Shown here one piece after another: positions 14,343 through 24,611 of a DNA stretch of 64,000 nucleotides. The DNA is taken from assembly GCA_019058245.1 (NCBI GenBank), contig JAHPZJ010000006.1, positions 96,457 to 160,456 of the forward strand, written 5' to 3'. The stretch comes from Promethearchaeota archaeon (lineage in GTDB: Archaea; Asgardarchaeota; Lokiarchaeia; Sigyniarchaeales; SOKP01). A program made the translations under genes and the position numbers. How positions within the stretch are numbered: the stretch's first letter is position 1; each line of letters starts with the position of its first letter. Under the pieces are notes generated by a model, which did no database searches, was not told the DNA's origin, and worked only from the letters and a program-made list of their open reading frames with translations.

Positions 14343-15500
14343 CTATTTCACACCTCCATATACAGCAAAATAATAGCATTTCCAAATTACGTCAACATAT
14401 TTAAAACCAATATTATCAAGCCACTTTAGCTGGTTGAAAAGTACGGCAGGACAGTCTTCTTGACGATGATCTATGAGAATTCTCTCAATATCATCCATTG
14501 AATAATTACTTCTTAAAAAATCAGTCCATTGCTTTACATACATATCTTGTAAATAATTATTTGAACCCAGAATATTATCCAAATTATAAAATACTCCTCC
14601 TTGATTAAGAGCGTCATAAATTTTTGTATAAAACTTAACTTTATCTTCATCAGACCTAAGATGATGTAAGGCTAATGATGATAATATTACATCACACTGA
14701 GCTGTAAAAGATAGCATATTAAAATCATCTATAAGAAATTCAACATTGTTAAAGTTTGAAAGCTTTTTTTTAGCTAACTCGACCATATTCTCTGATACAT
14801 CAATCATAGTTAATTTAGAATTCGGAAAGTGCATTTTTATCAATTTTGAGAGATTTCCTGTCCCAGAGCCTAAATCAACTATTTTTATTTGTTGATGTAT
14901 ATCAAATGGTATAGAATTTATCAATGCTATCAGCATTTCATTATAATAGGGAACTACTTTGGGGATAAAATCATCATATGCAAATGATATTTCTTCAAAT
15001 CGAACTCTAATTTTTTCATTTATACTTTTTGTATTATACTTCTCTAAATACAAAAGTTTAACATTTTCATTCAATTCCTCGGTTTTAAATATATTATATC
15101 CCAGTTTCTGATAAAGATATAGATTTTTTTCGCTCTTAAATCCAGTAAATAATTCAAATCTGTCAGCATAGCTAAAGTTGTTTTCAATCTTTCTAAGAAT
15201 TAAAGTACCTAACCCTTGATTTTGATATTCTGGATGGACTATTAATTTTCCTATGAAGCATGATTCTTTATCTCGATATGCTCTTACCGATCCAATTATT
15301 TTATCATTTTTTAAAGCTTTTAGAAATATACTTTTTCTAAACTCCTCTTTAAGTTCTTCAATTGTCTGATGTAAAGGAGGGATATTGAAATCATTGTAGA
15401 TTTCTGCTTCGCTTTGATATGCTATTTTTTGAAGTTGAAGAATTTCATCTAAATCATTTTCTTTAACTGATTTAATTTCAACAGATTTAATTTCACTCAT
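14343..15500 (-). CDS. GNAT acetyltransferase fused to a CmoA-like class I SAM methyltransferase
   Basis: N-terminal LIVHPEYQNQGLG and NLYLYQKLGY (GNAT); C-terminal VDLGSGTG, SSLALHHL, LNQGG. Confidence 0.85.
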   Translation of the reverse strand: MSEIKSVEIKSVKENDLDEILQLQKIAYQSEAEIYNDFNIPPLHQTIEELKEEFRKSIFLKALKNDKIIGSVRAYRDKESCFIGKLIVHPEYQNQGLGTLILRKIENNFSYADRFELFTGFKSEKNLYLYQKLGYNIFKTEELNENVKLLYLEKYNTKSINEKIRVRFEEISFAYDDFIPKVVPYYNEMLIALINSIPFDIHQQIKIVDLGSGTGNLSKLIKMHFPNSKLTMIDVSENMVELAKKKLSNFNNVEFLIDDFNMLSFTAQCDVILSSLALHHLRSDEDKVKFYTKIYDALNQGGVFYNLDNILGSNNYLQDMYVKQWTDFLRSNYSMDDIERILIDHRQEDCPAVLFNQLKWLDNIGFKYVDVIWKCYYFAVYGGVK

Positions 15501-15699
15501 TATTTTTTCTCCTCAAAAATTTTTTCCGATATATCATTTCGATTATTTTTTTTTATTTTTTTCTGATATTTTTTTTTTTCACTCATATTCAATATATTTT
15601 ATGAATTGGATTAGAATTTCTTAAAGAAGTGAAAGATAGTTGGAATGATATAAGAATATCTTTAATTTTTAAAAAAAACAGAAATTCTAATAATTAAAC

Positions 15700-15727
15700 C
15701 ATTGCGCACGTTCTACGCGTGCCAATG
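15700..15727 (-). promoter_or_regulatory. Leader hairpin over the last Trp codon and the stop
   Basis: CATTG-GCACG [CGTAGAA] CGTGC-g-CAATG: 10-bp stem with one bulge. Confidence 0.65.
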
Positions 15728-15790
15728 TAATACCCAAAACCAACTAATGAAAAATTTTCTTAAGCTTAAGTTTTTTTTAATTGTTGTCAT
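15713..15790 (-). CDS. Putative Trp-rich leader peptide (25 aa) MTTIKKNLSLRKFFISWFWVLHWHA
   Basis: Read directly on the minus strand: three TGG codons in the last nine codons, TAG stop inside a hairpin loop, same architecture as the leader before trpD. Confidence 0.7.
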   Translation of the reverse strand: MTTIKKNLSLRKFFISWFWVLHWHA

Positions 15791-15839
15791 TTTTCATTCA
15801 AAAGGTTTTGTTAATTATACAAATGTAATAATTAATTGA

Positions 15840-15854
15840 TATTTATATTTTTTT
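15840..15854 (-). promoter_or_regulatory. BRE/TATA-like promoter of leader 2
   Basis: AAAAAAATATAAATA about 50 nt upstream of the leader ATG; identical to 24597..24611. Confidence 0.6.
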
Positions 15855-15929: not shown

Positions 15930-16148
15930 ATGGATATATATGCATGGAATACGAAAGTGAGCAGTTTGTTTGATTTCAATAAAGATCCCAGATTGAATAA
16001 TAATATCATATCAGAAAATCCAGATAAAGTGAAAGAACTACTTGAACTGTGTTGGAAAGATGCCCGAGAACCAATTGACTTTGATTTCATGCGCCATTTT
16101 AAAGATCGACTGGGTTGTACACCAGTAACTCGAAAATTAACCAAATAA
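15930..16148 (+). CDS. Small hypothetical protein or gene fragment (72 aa)
   Basis: ATG-started ORF with protein-like composition in otherwise very AT-rich DNA. Confidence 0.45.
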   Translation: MDIYAWNTKVSSLFDFNKDPRLNNNIISENPDKVKELLELCWKDAREPIDFDFMRHFKDRLGCTPVTRKLTK

Positions 16149-16217
16149 TCCAAAGGGATTTTTTTTACTAAATAATTTCACCTAAAATAAATTAATAATA
16201 GTATAGTGAAAAAAGAT

Positions 16218-16324
16218 AGTTAGTAATATTTAACAAAATGTGATAAAAACCTAACATTTATATATGTTAATTATTTCTAATAATATGTTAATTATTTCTA
16301 ACAAATTATGAAAAAAATATAACA
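16218..16324 (+). promoter_or_regulatory. Array of TGTTA-N8-TAACA-like operators around a TATA box
   Basis: 18-bp sites at 16218, 16239, 16265, 16286 and (degenerate) 16307, with 21-bp phasing; TTTATATA at 16257-16264. Confidence 0.7.
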
Positions 16325-16336
16325 AGTGGTGATAAA

Positions 16337-16654
16337 ATGGATATAGGAATAATAATTCTGTTGATTCTAGGAATATTTCTGGCACAAATTTTGATTTTTC
16401 TATTTGTGTTCAGATATACAAAGAAAAAAGGGATACTTCTAAGAGATGAAATGACCCGCGGGATGATGCGTAAATCTAGCGAAATTTCGTTTTGGGGATC
16501 TTGGGTTTTCTGGATCATTATCTTAATATTAGAATCAATTTCAGAGTTCACCTTCAATTGGTATATCTATTGCGGACTAATAGGAATGGGAGTTATTTAC
16601 GTAATTTCTAATGCAATCATAAAATTCCAATTAAAAAACAAAGGTCAGGATTAA
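16337..16654 (+). CDS. Small membrane protein, DUF2178-like
   Basis: Three hydrophobic segments with [15 protein letters not shown] after TM1; translationally coupled to the XRE gene. Confidence 0.7.
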
Positions 16655-16920: not shown

Positions 16921-17514
16921 TTAAAGCTCTAAGAAATTTTTTAAGATTTGAATGCCGTGTGGCTTCATTTTGATGGATTCGGGGTGGAATTGAAGACCTT
17001 CTACGGGATATTGCTTATGTCGAACTCCCATAATCGTACCATCATCCGCTGTTGCAGAGATTTTAAGGTTTTGAGGGAGGATATCCCCCTTTGCTGCTAG
17101 TGAATGATATCGAATAACCTGTAAAGGATTGGAAACATCTTTTAATACTGTTTTTTGGTCGTGAAACACTTTAGATTCTTTACCATGCATAGGGCCTACT
17201 TTAGCTCTTCCTACATATTCCACATTTTCATCTTCTCCAAAAGCTTCGACAATCGCTTGATGACCTAAACAGATCCCCAATATTGGTATTTTGGAGTAGA
17301 ACTCTTTAATGATTGGAATTACTGTACCCGTATCATATTTAGGATGCCCAGGACCAGGTGAGATAATTATCTTATCAGCATTCATTTCTTTTACTTTATC
17401 TACTGCAATATGGTTATCCTCAACAATTATTTCAGCGTCTGGTTGTAATTGACATATATAATTGACCAGATTATACACAAAACTATCATAATTATTAATA
17501 AATAGAATTTTCAT
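16921..17514 (-). CDS. trpG: Anthranilate synthase component II
   Basis: NYDSFVYNL, ISPGPGHP, GICLGHQ, RYHSL, QFHPES. Confidence 0.96.
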   Translation of the reverse strand: MKILFINNYDSFVYNLVNYICQLQPDAEIIVEDNHIAVDKVKEMNADKIIISPGPGHPKYDTGTVIPIIKEFYSKIPILGICLGHQAIVEAFGEDENVEYVGRAKVGPMHGKESKVFHDQKTVLKDVSNPLQVIRYHSLAAKGDILPQNLKISATADDGTIMGVRHKQYPVEGLQFHPESIKMKPHGIQILKNFLEL

Positions 17515-19007
17515 TTTTGTCTCGCCTCTGCGATTTTTATTGATTTCAATACACTATAGAGTTTATTATAAGTCTCCATATATTCTTCATGAGGTTGACT
17601 ATCAGCAACAATACCTCCTCCAGCTTGTGCAAAATATGAGCCATTTCTTCCAAATAGAGTTCTTATTGCAATAGCAAATGTCATATCGCCATTGAAGCTA
17701 AAATACCCGACTCCACCACCATAGGGACCCCTTGACTCTGTTTCTAATTCTTGAATTAACTCCATAGCACGTTTCTTTGGAGCTCCCGAAAGTGTTCCAG
17801 CGGGGAATACACTCTTTAAGACTTGATATCCGTCTAATGGCGTTTTACTTCTAACTTTACTAACAATATGTTGGACTTTTTGATATTTCTGGACTGCCAT
17901 TAGTTCAAATGTATCAACAGAACCCGGATATGAGACCTTAGCTAAGTCGTTCCTTGCTAAATCCACCAGCATTATGTGTTCAGCCTGCTCTTTTGGATCA
18001 TTAAGCAATTCTTTTTCTAACTTTAAATCTTCCTCGGGTGTCTTACCTCTCCTAATCGTACCTGCGATTGGCACTGTGTTAAGAACATTTTTATTCTTGG
18101 AAATAAGTGCTTCGGGGCTACTTCCAATGATCTTAATCTTTCCAAAATTTATATTGTACATATATTGGGAAGGATTAAGCACTCTGAGAACCTCGTAGAT
18201 CTTCATAGCATCGATTTTACTATCCGTGTATAGCCTTCGGGAAATAACTGCTTGTATTATGTCACCCGCGTAAATATGTTCTTTTGTTTTTTCAATCATT
18301 CTTGCATGAGCACTTTCACTCGTATTTGAACGGAACGTGGATTCATCCACTTCATCTATATCTATTGGAATTTCCTTTTTTACGTCCGATTTATTATTTC
18401 TATTAAACAGACTAAGTTGATAACGAATGTCCTTATCTTTAGAATAGTCATCGATGCTATTATCAATCATAAATAGGGCGTTTGATGCATGGGAGTAAAC
18501 CAAAACTTTTGTATAGAGTGCCATCATAATATCTGGAAACTCACTCGTGGATTTATATCCTACATATGGAGCCACCACATCATAACCGATGTATCCTAAC
18601 ATCCCACCATAAAAGATATTCCTTGGGAATAATTCCGTAAAAGGAAGGTTAGAATAAGGAGTGAGACGACTAAGTGTATTAAGAGCTAACATATTATAAT
18701 CCACATTATCCTTGAAAGGGAGGGGATTATGCGGTCTTTCCTCAACTGGATCTTTCGATTCCATATACTCTTTGATAGTCTCACCTCTAGCGCTCGTGAT
18801 ATCGTACATTTTAAATTGATCTTCTTTAATTTCCAGTATAAAATCCGGATCTAGAGCAATAAAACTATATAACGTTTCTTTTGTATTCTCTGAAGCAGAC
18901 TCCAAGAGCGCATGCTTTTTCAAGTCATATTTCTTTACTAAATATTTATAAAATTCAAAGATGTTTTCCAATTCTCCAATTTTTTCAATATGAATATCAA
19001 ATTCCAT
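17511..19007 (-). CDS. trpE: Anthranilate synthase component I
   Basis: LLESA, NPSQYM, GSSPE, PIAGT, AEHIMLVDLARNDL, FPAGTLSGAPK. Confidence 0.96.
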   Translation of the reverse strand: MEFDIHIEKIGELENIFEFYKYLVKKYDLKKHALLESASENTKETLYSFIALDPDFILEIKEDQFKMYDITSARGETIKEYMESKDPVEERPHNPLPFKDNVDYNMLALNTLSRLTPYSNLPFTELFPRNIFYGGMLGYIGYDVVAPYVGYKSTSEFPDIMMALYTKVLVYSHASNALFMIDNSIDDYSKDKDIRYQLSLFNRNNKSDVKKEIPIDIDEVDESTFRSNTSESAHARMIEKTKEHIYAGDIIQAVISRRLYTDSKIDAMKIYEVLRVLNPSQYMYNINFGKIKIIGSSPEALISKNKNVLNTVPIAGTIRRGKTPEEDLKLEKELLNDPKEQAEHIMLVDLARNDLAKVSYPGSVDTFELMAVQKYQKVQHIVSKVRSKTPLDGYQVLKSVFPAGTLSGAPKKRAMELIQELETESRGPYGGGVGYFSFNGDMTFAIAIRTLFGRNGSYFAQAGGGIVADSQPHEEYMETYNKLYSVLKSIKIAEARQK

Positions 19008-19042
19008 TTTTTTATCTGTCCTTTTTATTTTTTTGTTTATAT

Positions 19043-19759
19043 TTATTTATTTTTAATTCCAAAAGCTCTTGGACATTTAACTCTGCATAGATTACATTTT
19101 TGGAGTGTATATCCTTTCTGATGTTTAAAATTCGATATTGGCCTACAAAGTGCTTGATTTACCGTTTCTCCATTTAATGCTTGTTGAGGACAAAATTCAA
19201 TACATATATTACATGAATCCAAACATCCTTCATAAGTGGCAATTGCATCTGCTTCTAGCTCAATATCTACCAGAACGGCTCCAAGTTGGATCATATTACC
19301 ATAAATATTATTAATTAAAAGAGTATTTTTTCCAATAACTCCAAGACCACTAAGATAACCTGCATGTCTTAATGACAAAATTGCTCTTCCATAAGACCTA
19401 TCTGGTTCCCAATACTCGTATGGGTCATCTGATGGTATGGGGACACATCTTATTCCCAATTCCTCTAAGCTATATAAAATATCAATAGTTAATTTATCAA
19501 TAATCCTCATAATCATGCTATTTACAAAAGTATATGGAACACAATTAACAGCATAATTTGAACTGTTAGGAGTTCTTTTTAAGAATACAACTATTGATTT
19601 ACATTCTGGAAAAATATCAGTAGGATGAAATCCTTTAGGCGCATCTTTAAATCTATCAACTGATGCAATTCCACATAGATCAGCTCCTAAATTATTTATT
19701 CTATTCTTAATATAGTTAGAATTAATATTATTGAGTAACTCATTTTCAGTATTTCTCAC
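19043..19759 (-). CDS. QueG-like (epoxyqueuosine reductase-like) Fe-S protein
   Basis: GADLCGIA...P.DI.PECKSIVV, LSLRHAGYLSGLGVIGKNTLL, CLDSCNICIEFCP, CNLCRVKCP. Confidence 0.82.
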   Translation of the reverse strand: MRNTENELLNNINSNYIKNRINNLGADLCGIASVDRFKDAPKGFHPTDIFPECKSIVVFLKRTPNSSNYAVNCVPYTFVNSMIMRIIDKLTIDILYSLEELGIRCVPIPSDDPYEYWEPDRSYGRAILSLRHAGYLSGLGVIGKNTLLINNIYGNMIQLGAVLVDIELEADAIATYEGCLDSCNICIEFCPQQALNGETVNQALCRPISNFKHQKGYTLQKCNLCRVKCPRAFGIKNK

Positions 19760-19762
19760 TAT

Positions 19763-20593
19763 TCAATTCACCCTCCTTATTGCATTCATAATACTTGAAA
19801 CAAAATCCTTCATTTCTAATTCCATCTTCTTATGATCATTAAGATTTTTTTTAACTATATTTACAATAGCAGAACCTATAATGATTCCATTGGCACCAGC
19901 ATCAATAATTGCATTAGCATGTTCTGGTTTAGAAATACCAAATCCAACAAATACGGGGAGAACTTTTTCAGTCTTAAGCTTGATCCGTTTGATAGTATCT
20001 TTAGTAATTTGCGCAACAGTATCCCTAATCCCTGTAACACCCATAATTGCAATTAAATAAATAAAACCTTTTCCTACTTTCAAGATTTTATCTAATCTCT
20101 CCTCTGTTGTGGAAGGAGCAACTAGAAAAATCAAGCAGATATTATATTTTTCACATGCCTTCAAAGTCAAATCTGCTTCTTCTATAGGTAAATCTCCAAT
20201 CACAATTCCATCTACACCGTTCTCTTTAAGATTTTTAAATGTTATATCAAGAGATGCTTCTATGGTGTCAGCACCTTGAATTAGAATGTTATAATAAGTT
20301 AATACAACTATTGGTTTCTCTGTTTCAGATCTTATAGTCTTTATAGCCTTTAAAGCTGTTTTTGTATTTACTCCTGCATTGAAAGCCCTAACATTTGCCT
20401 CTTGAATAGTAGGGCCGTCTGCAATTGGATCAGAAAAGGGAATTCCAATTTCAAGAATATCAGCATATGGTTCTATGATTTTGGCAAGCTTTATAAATTG
20501 ATCCATATTGGGATCTCCAGCCACTAAGAATGGCATAAATCTTCTTTCATTATTATTTTTGAACAATTCTAATATTCTATTTGAATCTGTCAT
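19763..20593 (-). CDS. trpA: Tryptophan synthase alpha
   Basis: [35 protein letters not shown]. Confidence 0.97.
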
Positions 20594-21807
20594 TTTATGC
20601 TGAACTCCATATGTTTTTTAATAATATCAAGATCTTTTGAACCAGATCCTGAAAGATTAATAATTACGATATCATCTTTTTTGAACATATCTTTATTTTT
20701 TTCTAAATAAGCTAAAGCATGAGAGCTTTCCAAAGCTGGGATTATTCCTTCAAGTTTAGATAGGTTTTTGAAAGCTTCTAATGTTTCATTATCGGTCGCT
20801 TCTCCAACAACTAATCGATTAAGTTGGTGTAAATAACAATGTTCAGGACCTACCCCTGGATAATCTAATCCCGCACTTATTGAGTGTGTTTCTATTATAT
20901 TTCCATACTCATTTTGTAAAAGGTATTGCATAGCACCATGCAAAACTCCTCTACGTCCTAATCCTAAGGCAATAGAATGTTTATTTGTGTCCCTACCTTC
21001 TCCAGCTGCTTCAACTCCAATTAATTGTACATTTGAATTATCAATAAAATCATAAAACGCCCCTATGGCATTACTCCCTCCACCTATACAAGCAATTATA
21101 GCATCAGGGGGTTTTCCTTCAAGTTCTAAAATCTGTACTTTCATTTCTTTCCCTATAATCCTTTGAAATTCTCGAACAATTAATGGATAGGGATGGGGAC
21201 CTACTACACTCCCCATTAAATAATGATATTCTTTCAAATTGGCAATCCAAAATCTAAGACCTTCATTAACAGCATCTTTTAAAGTTCTTGAACCAGACTT
21301 AACTGGAATCACTTCGGCACCTAGAATTTGCATTCTATAGACATTATAGGCTTGTCTTTCAATATCAATTTCACCCATAAATACTTTAGTTGGCATACCA
21401 AAATATGCACCAGCTATAGCAGTTGCAAATCCATGTTGTCCTGCTCCTGTTTCAGCTACTAATTTCTTTTTTCCCATTTTTTTAGCGAGAAGAGCTTGCC
21501 CCATAACATTATTTATTTTATGAGCACCTCCATGGTTAAGATCTTCTCTTTTTAAATAAACTTTGCAACCAATAAAATCGCTATATCTCTCAGCATAATA
21601 TAATGGTGTCGGTCTGCCACTATAAAATCTTAATATCCGTTCAAATTCCTCAATGAAATTTTCATCATGAATGTATCGGTTAAATGCTTCAGTAAGTTCA
21701 TTGAGGGCAGGCATTAATATTTCAGGTGCAAACATGCCACCAAATTCTCCGAATTTTCCTAATTCGTCTGGATATTTGTCAATATAATCCATTTTTTTCA
21801 TACTCAT
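20590..21807 (-). CDS. trpB: Tryptophan synthase beta (TrpB1 type)
   Basis: [46 protein letters not shown]. Confidence 0.97.
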
Positions 21808-22451
21808 ATATTTTTCTTAATTTCTTTTATTTTATCTAAAAATTTTTTAATTTTTAAAGGACTTTTAACACCTTTTTTTGATTCCAAAGAACTACTTACA
21901 TCAATTCCATATGGTTTTATCTTTTTGATTATATCTTCTATATTATCGATACTAATTCCTCCTGCCAGAATGATTTTGGTTTCAGAAATATTTTCCATTA
22001 ATTCCTTAATTATACTAATCTCTAACTTATTTCCATGCCCTTCGCTGTTATCAATTAGAATTGCAAAGAAGCTACCTTGTGACTCATTGATTTTAGTGAT
22101 AATCTCTTGTAGATTTGAATGATTTAACTTTAGTGCTAATATTATTTTCTCCTTTAATTCTTTTGAAATACTTCCTAATTCCTCTATACTCATATTACTA
22201 TGAATTTGATAATAGTTTACCTTAATATTGTTTACAATTTTCTTTAATTCATCAACGGTTCGGGGTTTACTAACCACAACTGTTAGGATATCATTAGATA
22301 TATTATCAAGAAGATTATTTATTTCTGTTTTCTTCAAGTTCCTTGGAGAAGAGGGGACATTATAAATAAAACCAACCGCATTAGCCCCATTTTCTGCACA
22401 AAGAGAAATTTCTTCTGGTTTTTTTAATCCACAGATCTTTATATACTCCAT
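21804..22451 (-). CDS. trpF: Phosphoribosylanthranilate isomerase
   Basis: [27 protein letters not shown]. Confidence 0.94.
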
Positions 22452-23245
22452 TAAGAACTTCCTCTTAACTCTTGAATTTTTTCTTTAATATTTTCGGATT
22501 GCATTATAGAAGAACCAACTAAGAAAGCATCTACCTTATATGGAACAAGAAAGTTGATATCATCTTTAGTAGAAATTCCACTTTCGCTAATCACACAAGT
22601 TTTATTCCCAACAATTTCTTTGATTTTTGGTATTAACTCCTTCGAAGTATTAAGATCTATTAGCATATTATTTAAATTACGATTATTTACACCAATCAAC
22701 TTGGGAATATGCCCAATTTCGAGTAAAGATTCAATATCTTTTAATTCTGATTTATCATGAATTTCTATTAATGGTTCTAGATCATATTGAATTGCCAATT
22801 CATATAAATTATTCAAGTTACCAAGTTGATTAATTAACAAGATATTAGTGGCTCCAATTTTTTTTGCTAATCGAAGCTGTAATTCATCGAAAACAAAATC
22901 CTTCATTAAACAAGGAATTTTAGTAGCATTTACAGCTTCCATTAGATTTTCAAATGAACCATTAAAATATTTTGGTTCTGTAAGTATGCTAAGTCCAATT
23001 ACTCCTGCGTTTTCCATTTCTTCTGCAACTTTAGAAACATTTATGTTAGATCTTATACTTCCCAGAGAAGGAGAGGAAGGTTTTATTTCCGAGATTATCG
23101 AAATTTTTCCTTGTTTACCAATATTCTCACTTAAAGGGATCCTTGAAGAAGCTTGAAAAGTCTTTGCTAAACTTTCAAACAAATCTATTTGTTTTACCAG
23201 TGATTTTTTTCTGCTTGCTAATATTTGATGTAGAATATTGGTCAT
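22451..23245 (-). CDS. trpC: Indole-3-glycerol phosphate synthase
   Basis: ISEIKPSSPS, SILTE..YF.GS, LMKDF, GVNNRNL, ISESGI. Confidence 0.95.
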   Translation of the reverse strand: MTNILHQILASRKKSLVKQIDLFESLAKTFQASSRIPLSENIGKQGKISIISEIKPSSPSLGSIRSNINVSKVAEEMENAGVIGLSILTEPKYFNGSFENLMEAVNATKIPCLMKDFVFDELQLRLAKKIGATNILLINQLGNLNNLYELAIQYDLEPLIEIHDKSELKDIESLLEIGHIPKLIGVNNRNLNNMLIDLNTSKELIPKIKEIVGNKTCVISESGISTKDDINFLVPYKVDAFLVGSSIMQSENIKEKIQELRGSS

Positions 23246-23252
23246 TATTTCT

Positions 23253-24308
23253 TCATAATATATTATTTAATTTTTGTTTATCTCCACCAGAAACCTCAAT
23301 AAAATTCTCGAGTTTTTGAAAAGCTTTGCCTTCTTCTATAGAATTTTTTGCCATAGAAATCCCCTCGTCAATGTCTTTTACAATATTAGCGCTAGTAAGA
23401 GCTAAGGCAGCATTCATCAAGACAGTATTATACTTAGCTCCTTTTAATTGATTTTTGAGGATACCTAACGCAATTTTCAGATTCTCATCAAGATTTCCAG
23501 CTAATATTTCTTCCACGGTACAATCTGGAAGGTTGAAATCTTTATTCGTTAAAGCATAAGATTCAATATTCCCATTTTTAACCTCAGTTATATAATTAAT
23601 TCCTATAGGTGCTAACTCATCAATTCCATATGAATTATGTACTGTGAATACATGTTTTCCTCCAAGATTTCCAAGGACTTTTGCCATAACTGGTGCTAAA
23701 TCTTTTTGGAAAACGCCTAGAGTGTGATAAGGAGCATTTGCAGGATTTGTTAAAGGTCCTAATATGTTAAAAACAGTTCTAATTTTTAGTTCCCTCCTTG
23801 TTGGCATTGCATGTTTCATTGCAGGATGAAATAAAGGTGCAAACATAAAACCAATACCTACTTGTTCTATACATTTTTTAACCTCTTCTGGGGATAAATC
23901 AATTTTTACACCTAACCCTTCTAATAAATCTGCACTCCCACATTTACTCGTAACTGCTCTATTTCCGTGTTTTGCAACAGGAACGCCAGCACCCGCTACA
24001 ACTAATGCTGAGATCGTACTTATATTAAAGGTTTTTACTTTATCTCCTCCAGTACCACATGTATCCAATAATTCTCTATTTATTTGCGGTTCAATTCGAT
24101 TTGCGAATTCACGCATAATTCGCGCAAAACCTGTGATCTCTTCTATAGATTCACCTTTCATATTTAAAGCTGTTAAAAATGCTCCCAATTGGGAAGCAGA
24201 AACATTTCCACTCATTATTTCTCTCATAATATTTTCTGCTTCGCTTGTTGATAAATCAACTTTTCTGATAATTTTATGTAATCCGTTAATTATTTTTTCT
24301 TCAAACAT
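23253..24308 (-). CDS. trpD: Anthranilate phosphoribosyltransferase
   Basis: DTCGTGGD, FNIST, VAKHGNR..TS..GSAD, RTVFNILGPLTNPA. Confidence 0.97.
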   Translation of the reverse strand: MFEEKIINGLHKIIRKVDLSTSEAENIMREIMSGNVSASQLGAFLTALNMKGESIEEITGFARIMREFANRIEPQINRELLDTCGTGGDKVKTFNISTISALVVAGAGVPVAKHGNRAVTSKCGSADLLEGLGVKIDLSPEEVKKCIEQVGIGFMFAPLFHPAMKHAMPTRRELKIRTVFNILGPLTNPANAPYHTLGVFQKDLAPVMAKVLGNLGGKHVFTVHNSYGIDELAPIGINYITEVKNGNIESYALTNKDFNLPDCTVEEILAGNLDENLKIALGILKNQLKGAKYNTVLMNAALALTSANIVKDIDEGISMAKNSIEEGKAFQKLENFIEVSGGDKQKLNNIL

Positions 24309-24486
24309 TTTTCTGCTTGTTTTTAATTTTTTATTTAGTTTTATCTACACATTATTAATGTGTGACTTTACTATATTGGAATTCAATTTAATAAAGCACA
24401 TATAGAAAATAAGTAAGATGTTTTCAGAAAGGAGGATTAAAGAATAGTATAATGTGAACAATAAAATATAATTTAACCTATGTGAA

Positions 24487-24504
24487 GCGCGTTCTTATGC
24501 GCGC
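24487..24504 (-). promoter_or_regulatory. Leader hairpin over the stop codon
   Basis: GCGCG [CATAAGAA] CGCGC: an all-GC stem in very AT-rich DNA. Confidence 0.65.
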
Positions 24505-24548
24505 CAAGACCAATGCCAACGAAAAGGAATTATTTTTTCATTAGCCAT
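24495..24548 (-). CDS. trpL: trp operon leader peptide (17 aa) MANEKIIPFRWHWSWRA
   Basis: ATG GCT AAT GAA AAA ATA ATT CCT TTT CGT TGG CAT TGG TCT TGG CGC GCA TAA, ending 186 nt upstream of trpD on the same strand; three Trp codons in five. Confidence 0.85.
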   Translation of the reverse strand: MANEKIIPFRWHWSWRA

Positions 24549-24596
24549 TTTTTTAAACCATATTTCATATATCTTGAAAGAATTAAGGATTCTCAC

Positions 24597-24611
24597 TATT
24601 TATATTTTTTT
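24597..24611 (-). promoter_or_regulatory. BRE/TATA-like promoter of the trp leader
   Basis: AAAAAAATATAAATA about 49 nt upstream of the leader ATG; identical to 15840..15854. Confidence 0.6.

Follow-up and report, generated by a model that had tools for sequence, protein, structure and literature searches.

Our study reports on a folded RNA leader with a short, tryptophan-rich open reading frame that, judging from sequence comparison, is found before the tryptophan genes of about 100 Lokiarchaeia. Two copies lie in the window, by which we mean the whole 64,000-nucleotide stretch of a Promethearchaeota archaeon contig that was analysed. Comparison across the family indicates that the stop-codon hairpin of the leader, P3, is a real, evolutionarily conserved helix within the folded RNA, which is about 230 nt long and in which the alignments show covariation of the helices P3, P1 and P4. 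We propose that the leader probably lets the ribosome report a shortage of Trp, a type of control known in bacteria.

Two tryptophan leaders in the window

Leader 1 is located 186 nt upstream of trpD and leader 2, which is conserved upstream of the same gene in relatives, 212 nt upstream of a gene for a GNAT-methyltransferase fusion (Table 1). Both leader ORFs have the same A-rich, TATA-like sequence of 15 nt about 50 nt upstream of their starts, and the TATA column is conserved in the leader alignments. A Trp-rich mini-ORF was seen upstream of five of the 2242 genes of this genome, and leaders 1 and 2 account for two of these.

Table 1. Features of the two leaders and their downstream genes in the window.
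Feature	Coordinates	Strand	Remarks
Leader ORF 1	24495..24548	minus	17 codons, three Trp; W-x-W-x-W-R-A-stop
Stop-codon hairpin, P3 upper stem, leader 1	24486..24505	minus	subtype A
BRE/TATA-like promoter element, leader 1	24597..24611	minus	putative function
Conserved CAWWGG motif	24477..24482	minus	
Long-range helix P1	24462..24569	minus	24553-24569 (5' UTR) with 24462-24476; encloses the whole leader ORF
U-rich, G-poor spacer	24393..24468	minus	53% U, 5% G; candidate premature-termination tract
Downstream long hairpin P4	24359..24400	minus	near-invariant apical stem; conserved in subtype A
trp operon under leader 1	16921..24308	minus	trpD-trpC-trpF-trpB-trpA-(QueG-like Fe-S gene)-trpE-trpG
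Leader ORF 2	15713..15790	minus	25 codons, three Trp; ends W-H-A-stop
Stop-codon hairpin P3, leader 2	15700..15727	minus	subtype B; consensus helix of the subtype
Subtype-B 5' helix	15735..15810	minus	15788-15810 (5' UTR/start region) with 15735-15754
BRE/TATA-like promoter element, leader 2	15840..15854	minus	putative function
U-rich spacer, leader 2	15611..15690	minus	U8 run at 15671-15678
GNAT acetyltransferase and class I SAM methyltransferase fusion	14343..15500	minus	385 aa

A sequence-only reading of the window had picked out a hairpin shared by both leaders, and both strings are present on the minus strand, at 24487..24504 and 15706..15722. As it had described, the stop codons lie within the loops (TAA at 24495..24497, TAG at 15713..15715), the 5' arm of each hairpin begins inside the last TGG codon, and the third stem pair differs, being G-C at 24487..24504 and A-U at 15706..15722. 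The segment 15706..15722 proves to be the top half of an interrupted hairpin of 10 bp (-12.5 kcal/mol, z=-2.93), with a lower stem of 5 bp (15723-15727 with 15700-15704), a 1-nt bulge at 15705 and an upper stem of 5 bp (15718-15722 with 15706-15710) that holds the stop in its loop. The trpD hairpin of leader 1, taken alone, is not remarkable (z=-1.07). The exchange that had been taken for a compensatory change is thus real, but one copy is of subtype A and the other of subtype B, and their comparison therefore amounts to a single event; by themselves they are weak evidence for covariation, and better-than-chance support for the hairpin appears only at the level of the family.

Conservation and covariation of P3

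Our set comprises 100 distinct leaders, drawn from loci of trpD, trpB2 and the methyltransferase gene. Because MAFFT misplaces the 3' arm when it aligns the two subtypes together, each was handled on its own and the two were then joined by anchoring. All four core pairs of P3 are kept in 78 of the 100 leaders, against 22.7 expected and a maximum of 38 in 1000 shuffles, and most of the remaining 22 belong to one trpB2 clade in which a register-shifted stem still encloses the stop. The 5' and 3' halves of a leader's own hairpin fold at -8.2 kcal/mol, compared with -6.1 +/- 0.17 kcal/mol for swapped partners. In an alignment of 62 type-A leaders built on sequence alone, which includes only one of the two window copies, RNAalifold predicts the P3 helix and nothing else; here P3 has 91% paired cells and 14 double changes, a level reached in 0/500 shuffles, whereas slid partners give only 31-72% paired.

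The pair to which the sequence-only reading had drawn attention (columns 77:91) ranks third among all column pairs in an APC-corrected G-test, and the two pairs above it both lie in helix P1. Over the 100 leaders it occurs as G-C (60), A-U (14), C-G (4) and U-A (3), covering all four Watson-Crick types. On the tree, the 5-bp stem shows about seven independent double changes, a count from which the A-versus-B change is excluded. Against a phylogenetic null that is an approximate, R-scape-like imitation on a tree, the pair reaches p=3.6e-4, with E ~0.002 over five pre-proposed pairs but E 2.2 over all pairs, and no single pair attains E<0.05 over all column pairs. The covariation of P3 in these alignments is thus good, yet formally non-significant in the all-pairs sense. 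Arg after Trp is encoded by CGN in 114/114 leader codons, against 39% in genes genome-wide, a restriction that points to a constraint at the level of the RNA. G-U and A-C mismatches in P3 stand at 24:8, and this excess of G-U indicates that the coding strand is the folding strand.

The stop codon lies fully in the loop in 68 of the 100 leaders, but in 29 it is partly in the 3' arm, so its placement in the loop is dispensable; in six trpB2 leaders of one clade the stem is kept while the ORF reads through it and stops beyond. Loop length and sequence vary freely across leaders. Across the alignments, the constant feature is the coupling of the stem to a late Trp codon. We note separately a leader before a methyltransferase gene (L365:5740-5830, plus strand) in which the last Trp codon has become Leu and the upper stem is retained.

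Family-level pairing and covariation thus bear out the proposal of a conserved, covarying cis-regulatory RNA helix. Its description as a new motif holds insofar as an Rfam search in E-value mode gave chance-level matches only, but the element does not stand alone: it forms the upper stem of one of the helices of the leader. The suggestion that its folding depends on the position of the ribosome is upheld by the geometry, since P3 shares nucleotides with the last Trp codon and, in most leaders, with the stop. A protein that reads the P3 loop in a sequence-specific manner is unlikely because the length and sequence of the loop vary. The terms switch, in the sense of alternative pairing, and pause hairpin find no backing, as the search for an alternative partner with covariation came up empty; a consensus for an elemental pause, 11 nt past the stem, is likewise unsupported, its spacing differing by eye between the subtypes.

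Architecture of the two leader subtypes

Subtype A comprises leader 1 and most trpD and trpB2 loci, while subtype B, the type of leader 2, is found at some trpD loci and also at trpA, trpE and methyltransferase loci. P1 forms in type A between the 5' UTR and the stretch right after CAWWGG (80% paired, 59 double changes, 0/500 shuffles). In a model-fitted alignment P1 is held in 20 leaders outside model building, among them a clade with a wholly different yet complementary P1 sequence. A possible further helix, P2, would join the start-codon region to the complementary region of the first Trp codon, with little covariation. Positions +31 to +50 after the stop are rich in U (56-57%) and poor in G (4-7%) against a background of 40% and 11%, and this tract is followed by P4, whose pairs reach p ~2-3e-4 under the approximate tree null. 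A reading of P4 as a mimic of the tRNA-Trp anticodon was rejected on loop geometry.

A lower stem of P3 can form between the CA of CAWWGG and the UG in the last Trp codon; the two are 100% complementary, and because these columns are nearly invariant the pairing is unproven by covariation. Other partners for the motif were rejected: the W-Q-W codons are 87% paired without covariation, the start codon was rejected, the Pro-Trp codons gave a weak signal (7/500) and none was found in the P4 apex. Translation through the motif as His/Gln-Trp codons was also discarded, as the frame is not conserved. Two observations on this locus are set apart. The 5' strand of P1 has its own AUG (24556..24571, minus strand), which in type-A leaders often has a stop within the next 1-3 codons, although this may be chance in AT-rich sequence. 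The 238-aa gene between trpA and trpE (19043..19759, minus strand) has only a weak QueG-like Fe-S match, and a gene of similar size precedes trpE at another locus (L366).

In type B, a longer P3 leads directly into the U-rich tract, P4 is replaced by another helix, and the W-F-W codons are the direct pairing partner of the 5' UTR; in leader 2 the 15735-15754 strand of this helix covers the W-F-W stretch as well as the first Trp codon. The Trp codons sit in paired strands in both subtypes. The leader 2 spacer contains complementary segments at 15680-15690 and 15611-15621. Each of these (minus strand) is near-palindromic, and a pair of DNA operators is possible.

The type-B leader accompanies the GNAT-methyltransferase gene in five relatives, with identity down to 68%, and in another genome the gene sits directly after trpG; we therefore regard it as a real member of the regulon. 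Two distant homologues (43-44%) have no leader. The leader ties this uncharacterised enzyme, whose nearest relatives of solved structure are MM_2633 and PDB entries named in a paper on cystargolide/belactosin O-methyltransferases, to Trp metabolism. The opposite strand between trpG and leader 2 (about 16130..16654, plus) carries a 105-aa membrane-like ORF (16337..16654) and after it a short gene that by the look of its sequence encodes a helix-turn-helix protein.

Distribution and variants of the leader

Model R1 matches 109 of the 135 family genomes and R2 matches 23. By coordinates, most R1 matches precede trpB2 or trpD, while matches before trpA, trpE and the GNAT-methyltransferase gene are contributed by R2; trpB2 was not found in the genome of the window, which is 76% complete. 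Leader ORFs are 12-25 aa long and contain 2-6 Trp codons (100 leaders), compared with 0.97% Trp codons genome-wide; indels are in-frame, and the ORF, its start and the Trp cluster are conserved. Nearly all of the closest trpD relatives are labelled Promethearchaeota (Lokiarchaeia). Trp-rich mini-ORFs also precede trpD or trpB2 in many Asgard lineages outside the family; a loose criterion places them at 11 of the 20 trpB2 loci sampled. The hairpin and CAWWGG are recognisable in few of these (L382, L011), and R1 gives a best E of 0.028 outside the family, with the L382 and L011 leaders not significant.

Where an unrelated membrane gene (L332) or a truncated trpA fragment (L364) lies downstream, the leader is decayed and carries an in-frame stop. 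Several variants were seen besides. Two hybrid leaders (L166, L174) combine a type-A 5' domain with a type-B 3' helix, so that the domains look modular, and one locus (L006) has tandem Trp-containing mini-ORFs 641 and 206 nt upstream of trpD. A type-A variant with an ORF rich in Phe as well as Trp (L330; G207:C17:11052-11166, minus strand), possibly retuned to aromatic amino acids, precedes genes for a 347-aa CxxCxxCC protein and a Kce-family cleavage enzyme. At L122:1246-1488 (plus strand), and likewise in L003, L119, L121, L125, L127 and L171, leader and trpD are separated by a conserved ORF of about 80-95 aa that carries a G-P-E-K motif and matches nothing in Pfam; it is absent from the window.

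Comparison with known regulatory systems

In E. coli trpL, the 1:2 pause or protector hairpin has a Trp codon in its 5' arm and the stop in its loop. The Lokiarchaeia P3 has the same layout, with the stop usually in the loop, and as in E. coli and Salmonella a short ORF stands ahead of the trp operon with its Trp codons about 9-11 codons from the start. A Trp-codon-rich short ORF upstream of Trp biosynthetic genes and a conserved hairpin overlapping the control codons and stop are thus shared with trpL. Neither ribosome-masked folding nor cross-covariation revealed a 2:3 antiterminator or any mutually exclusive counterpart to it, P4 showing no cross-covariation with the P3 arms or CAWWGG. There is also no separate GC-rich 3:4 terminator hairpin with a U run, the U-rich tract being preceded by the AU-rich P1 in type A or by P3 itself in type B, and no match to Rfam Trp_leader RF00513. 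In further contrast to trpL, the Lokiarchaeia leader has 3-6 spaced Trp codons instead of a tandem pair, a long-range helix that encloses the ORF, a structured spacer of 130-210 nt, and an archaeal TATA promoter and polymerase. While the leader would work like a leader-peptide attenuator, it is not filed as a member of the trpL class, because antiterminator, terminator hairpin and Rfam match are all missing.

Leader-peptide attenuators that depend on Rho include E. coli tnaC, Salmonella mgtL and the actinobacterial cys leaders. Translation-gated access of Rho has been described (PMC13675443). The Lokiarchaeia leader resembles these in having a mini-ORF followed by a long pyrimidine-rich, G-poor spacer without an intrinsic terminator, on which a factor could load. 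It differs in that the candidate archaeal factor is the nuclease aCPSF1/FttA, the tract is rich in U and not in C, and a stalled ribosome would not directly cover it. Among archaea, Methanothermobacter TrpY is a DNA-binding repressor that acts at initiation, and a very short Trp-containing leader ORF has reportedly been noted in that system. TrpY exerts Trp-dependent control over an archaeal trp operon, as is proposed here for the leader, but in the Lokiarchaeia the evidence is a covarying RNA with a multi-Trp ORF of 12-25 codons. T-box and TRAP (Bacillus) systems also place a 5' leader RNA ahead of Trp genes; they are not known to have a translated Trp-rich ORF. No T-box match was found in Rfam, CAWWGG does not keep UGG invariant, and the TRAP gene mtrB (PF02081) was not found in this 76%-complete genome.

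Proposed model of ribosome-gated attenuation

We consider it very likely that the leader is a Trp sensor read by the ribosome, and fairly probable that its output is termination. By analogy, P3 may well correspond in structure to the 1:2 hairpin of E. coli trpL, as part of a Trp-sensing leader with premature termination; given this shared anatomy, we read it as a helix that would be opened by the ribosome and re-close once the ribosome is released. The mini-ORF would be translated co-transcriptionally. When Trp-tRNA is plentiful, the ribosome would reach the stop and depart, and the leader would close through P3 and P1/P2, which may also bury the start codon; RNA polymerase, now uncoupled, would then terminate in the adjacent U-rich tract, either intrinsically or via aCPSF1/FttA. 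Under Trp shortage, a ribosome that has stalled at the Trp codons would keep these strands open, and the downstream genes would be transcribed. An aCPSF1 gene is present in the genome. Archaeal termination takes place at U tracts with or without hairpins, which can enhance it, and aCPSF1, itself an endonuclease, acts and cleaves there, the Lokiarchaeota orthologue terminating transcription in M. maripaludis (PMC7515710, PMC13675443).

The sign and kinetics of the output step are the least certain part of this model. Masking of the ribosome footprint, in an equilibrium model that ignores kinetics and ribosome bulk, alters P2 and P3 but leaves P1 nearly unchanged (6.8 versus about 6 bp) and P4 hardly altered, with the U tract equally exposed in all states; a ribosome masked on the first Trp codon leaves the P3 upper stem intact. 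A stalled ribosome uncoupled from the polymerase could in principle favour factor-dependent termination and not block it. On balance, we lean slightly towards the view that Lokiarchaeia use a Trp-tRNA attenuator of new architecture, in which the position of the ribosome on the mini-ORF gates the closure of several helices and thereby U-tract/aCPSF1 termination, with no bacterial antiterminator.

The same ribosome and Trp-tRNA sensor might instead act post-transcriptionally, through cleavage of the spacer, mRNA stability or translation initiation of the first gene; for mRNA stability, P4, a hairpin about 45 nt upstream of the gene, might give protection or bind a factor. We hold this to be rather unlikely, though it would suit the lack of an antiterminator, the endonuclease activity of aCPSF1 and the high conservation of P4, with its near-invariant apical stem close to the downstream start. 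The folding model shows no ribosome-dependent sequestering of that start region, however, the same ORF and P3 occur in subtype B, where P4 is missing, and the spacer of about 130-210 nt seems too long for termination-reinitiation. It is improbable that the leader serves chiefly as a binding site for a Trp-responsive protein or uncharged tRNA, in the manner of TRAP or the T-box, or as DNA operators, with the mini-ORF secondary: the P3 loop is variable, the ORF, start and Trp cluster are conserved with in-frame indels, the double changes and G-U excess point to RNA, and neither a T-box match nor, in the 76%-complete genome, a TRAP gene was found. This has to be set against the sequence conservation of CAWWGG and the P4 apex and the two copies of a 13-bp near-palindrome in subtype B.

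The well-conserved W-x-W-x-W spacing and W-Q-W core of subtype A would be expected if the leader peptide were itself a functional product or an arrest peptide that responds to free Trp, as TnaC does, with the hairpin only stabilising a short RNA. We think this very improbable, as the residues between and after the Trps vary freely (R/H/C/S/L) together with the non-coding 3' arm, the length of 12-25 aa and the position of the stop are variable, and TnaC-type arrest induces catabolic genes, a sign opposite to the biosynthetic need. Chance complementarity from repeated TGG-C codons and shared ancestry, without function, could account for the z of -1.07 of the trpD hairpin alone and the all-pairs E of 2.2 of the pair 77:91, but it is already contradicted by the shuffle controls and by about seven independent double changes in a 5-bp stem whose partner strand is mostly non-coding, and is scarcely credible.

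Significance

No mechanism of transcription attenuation or antitermination was known in archaea as of 2021 (PMC8448881), and a literature search confined to papers outside subscription found no later report of archaeal attenuation. The compact leader, with its covariation-supported helices and natural compensatory variants, offers a ready substrate for testing ribosome-gated termination by aCPSF1 or at U tracts in the lineage closest to eukaryotes, and this can be done in a laboratory archaeon because aCPSF1 from Lokiarchaeota is already functional in M. maripaludis (PMC7515710). If the proposed attenuator is true, it would be the first attenuation mechanism in archaea, with a regulon that includes an uncharacterised GNAT-methyltransferase, and would provide direct regulatory evidence for the coupling of transcription and translation in Asgard archaea.
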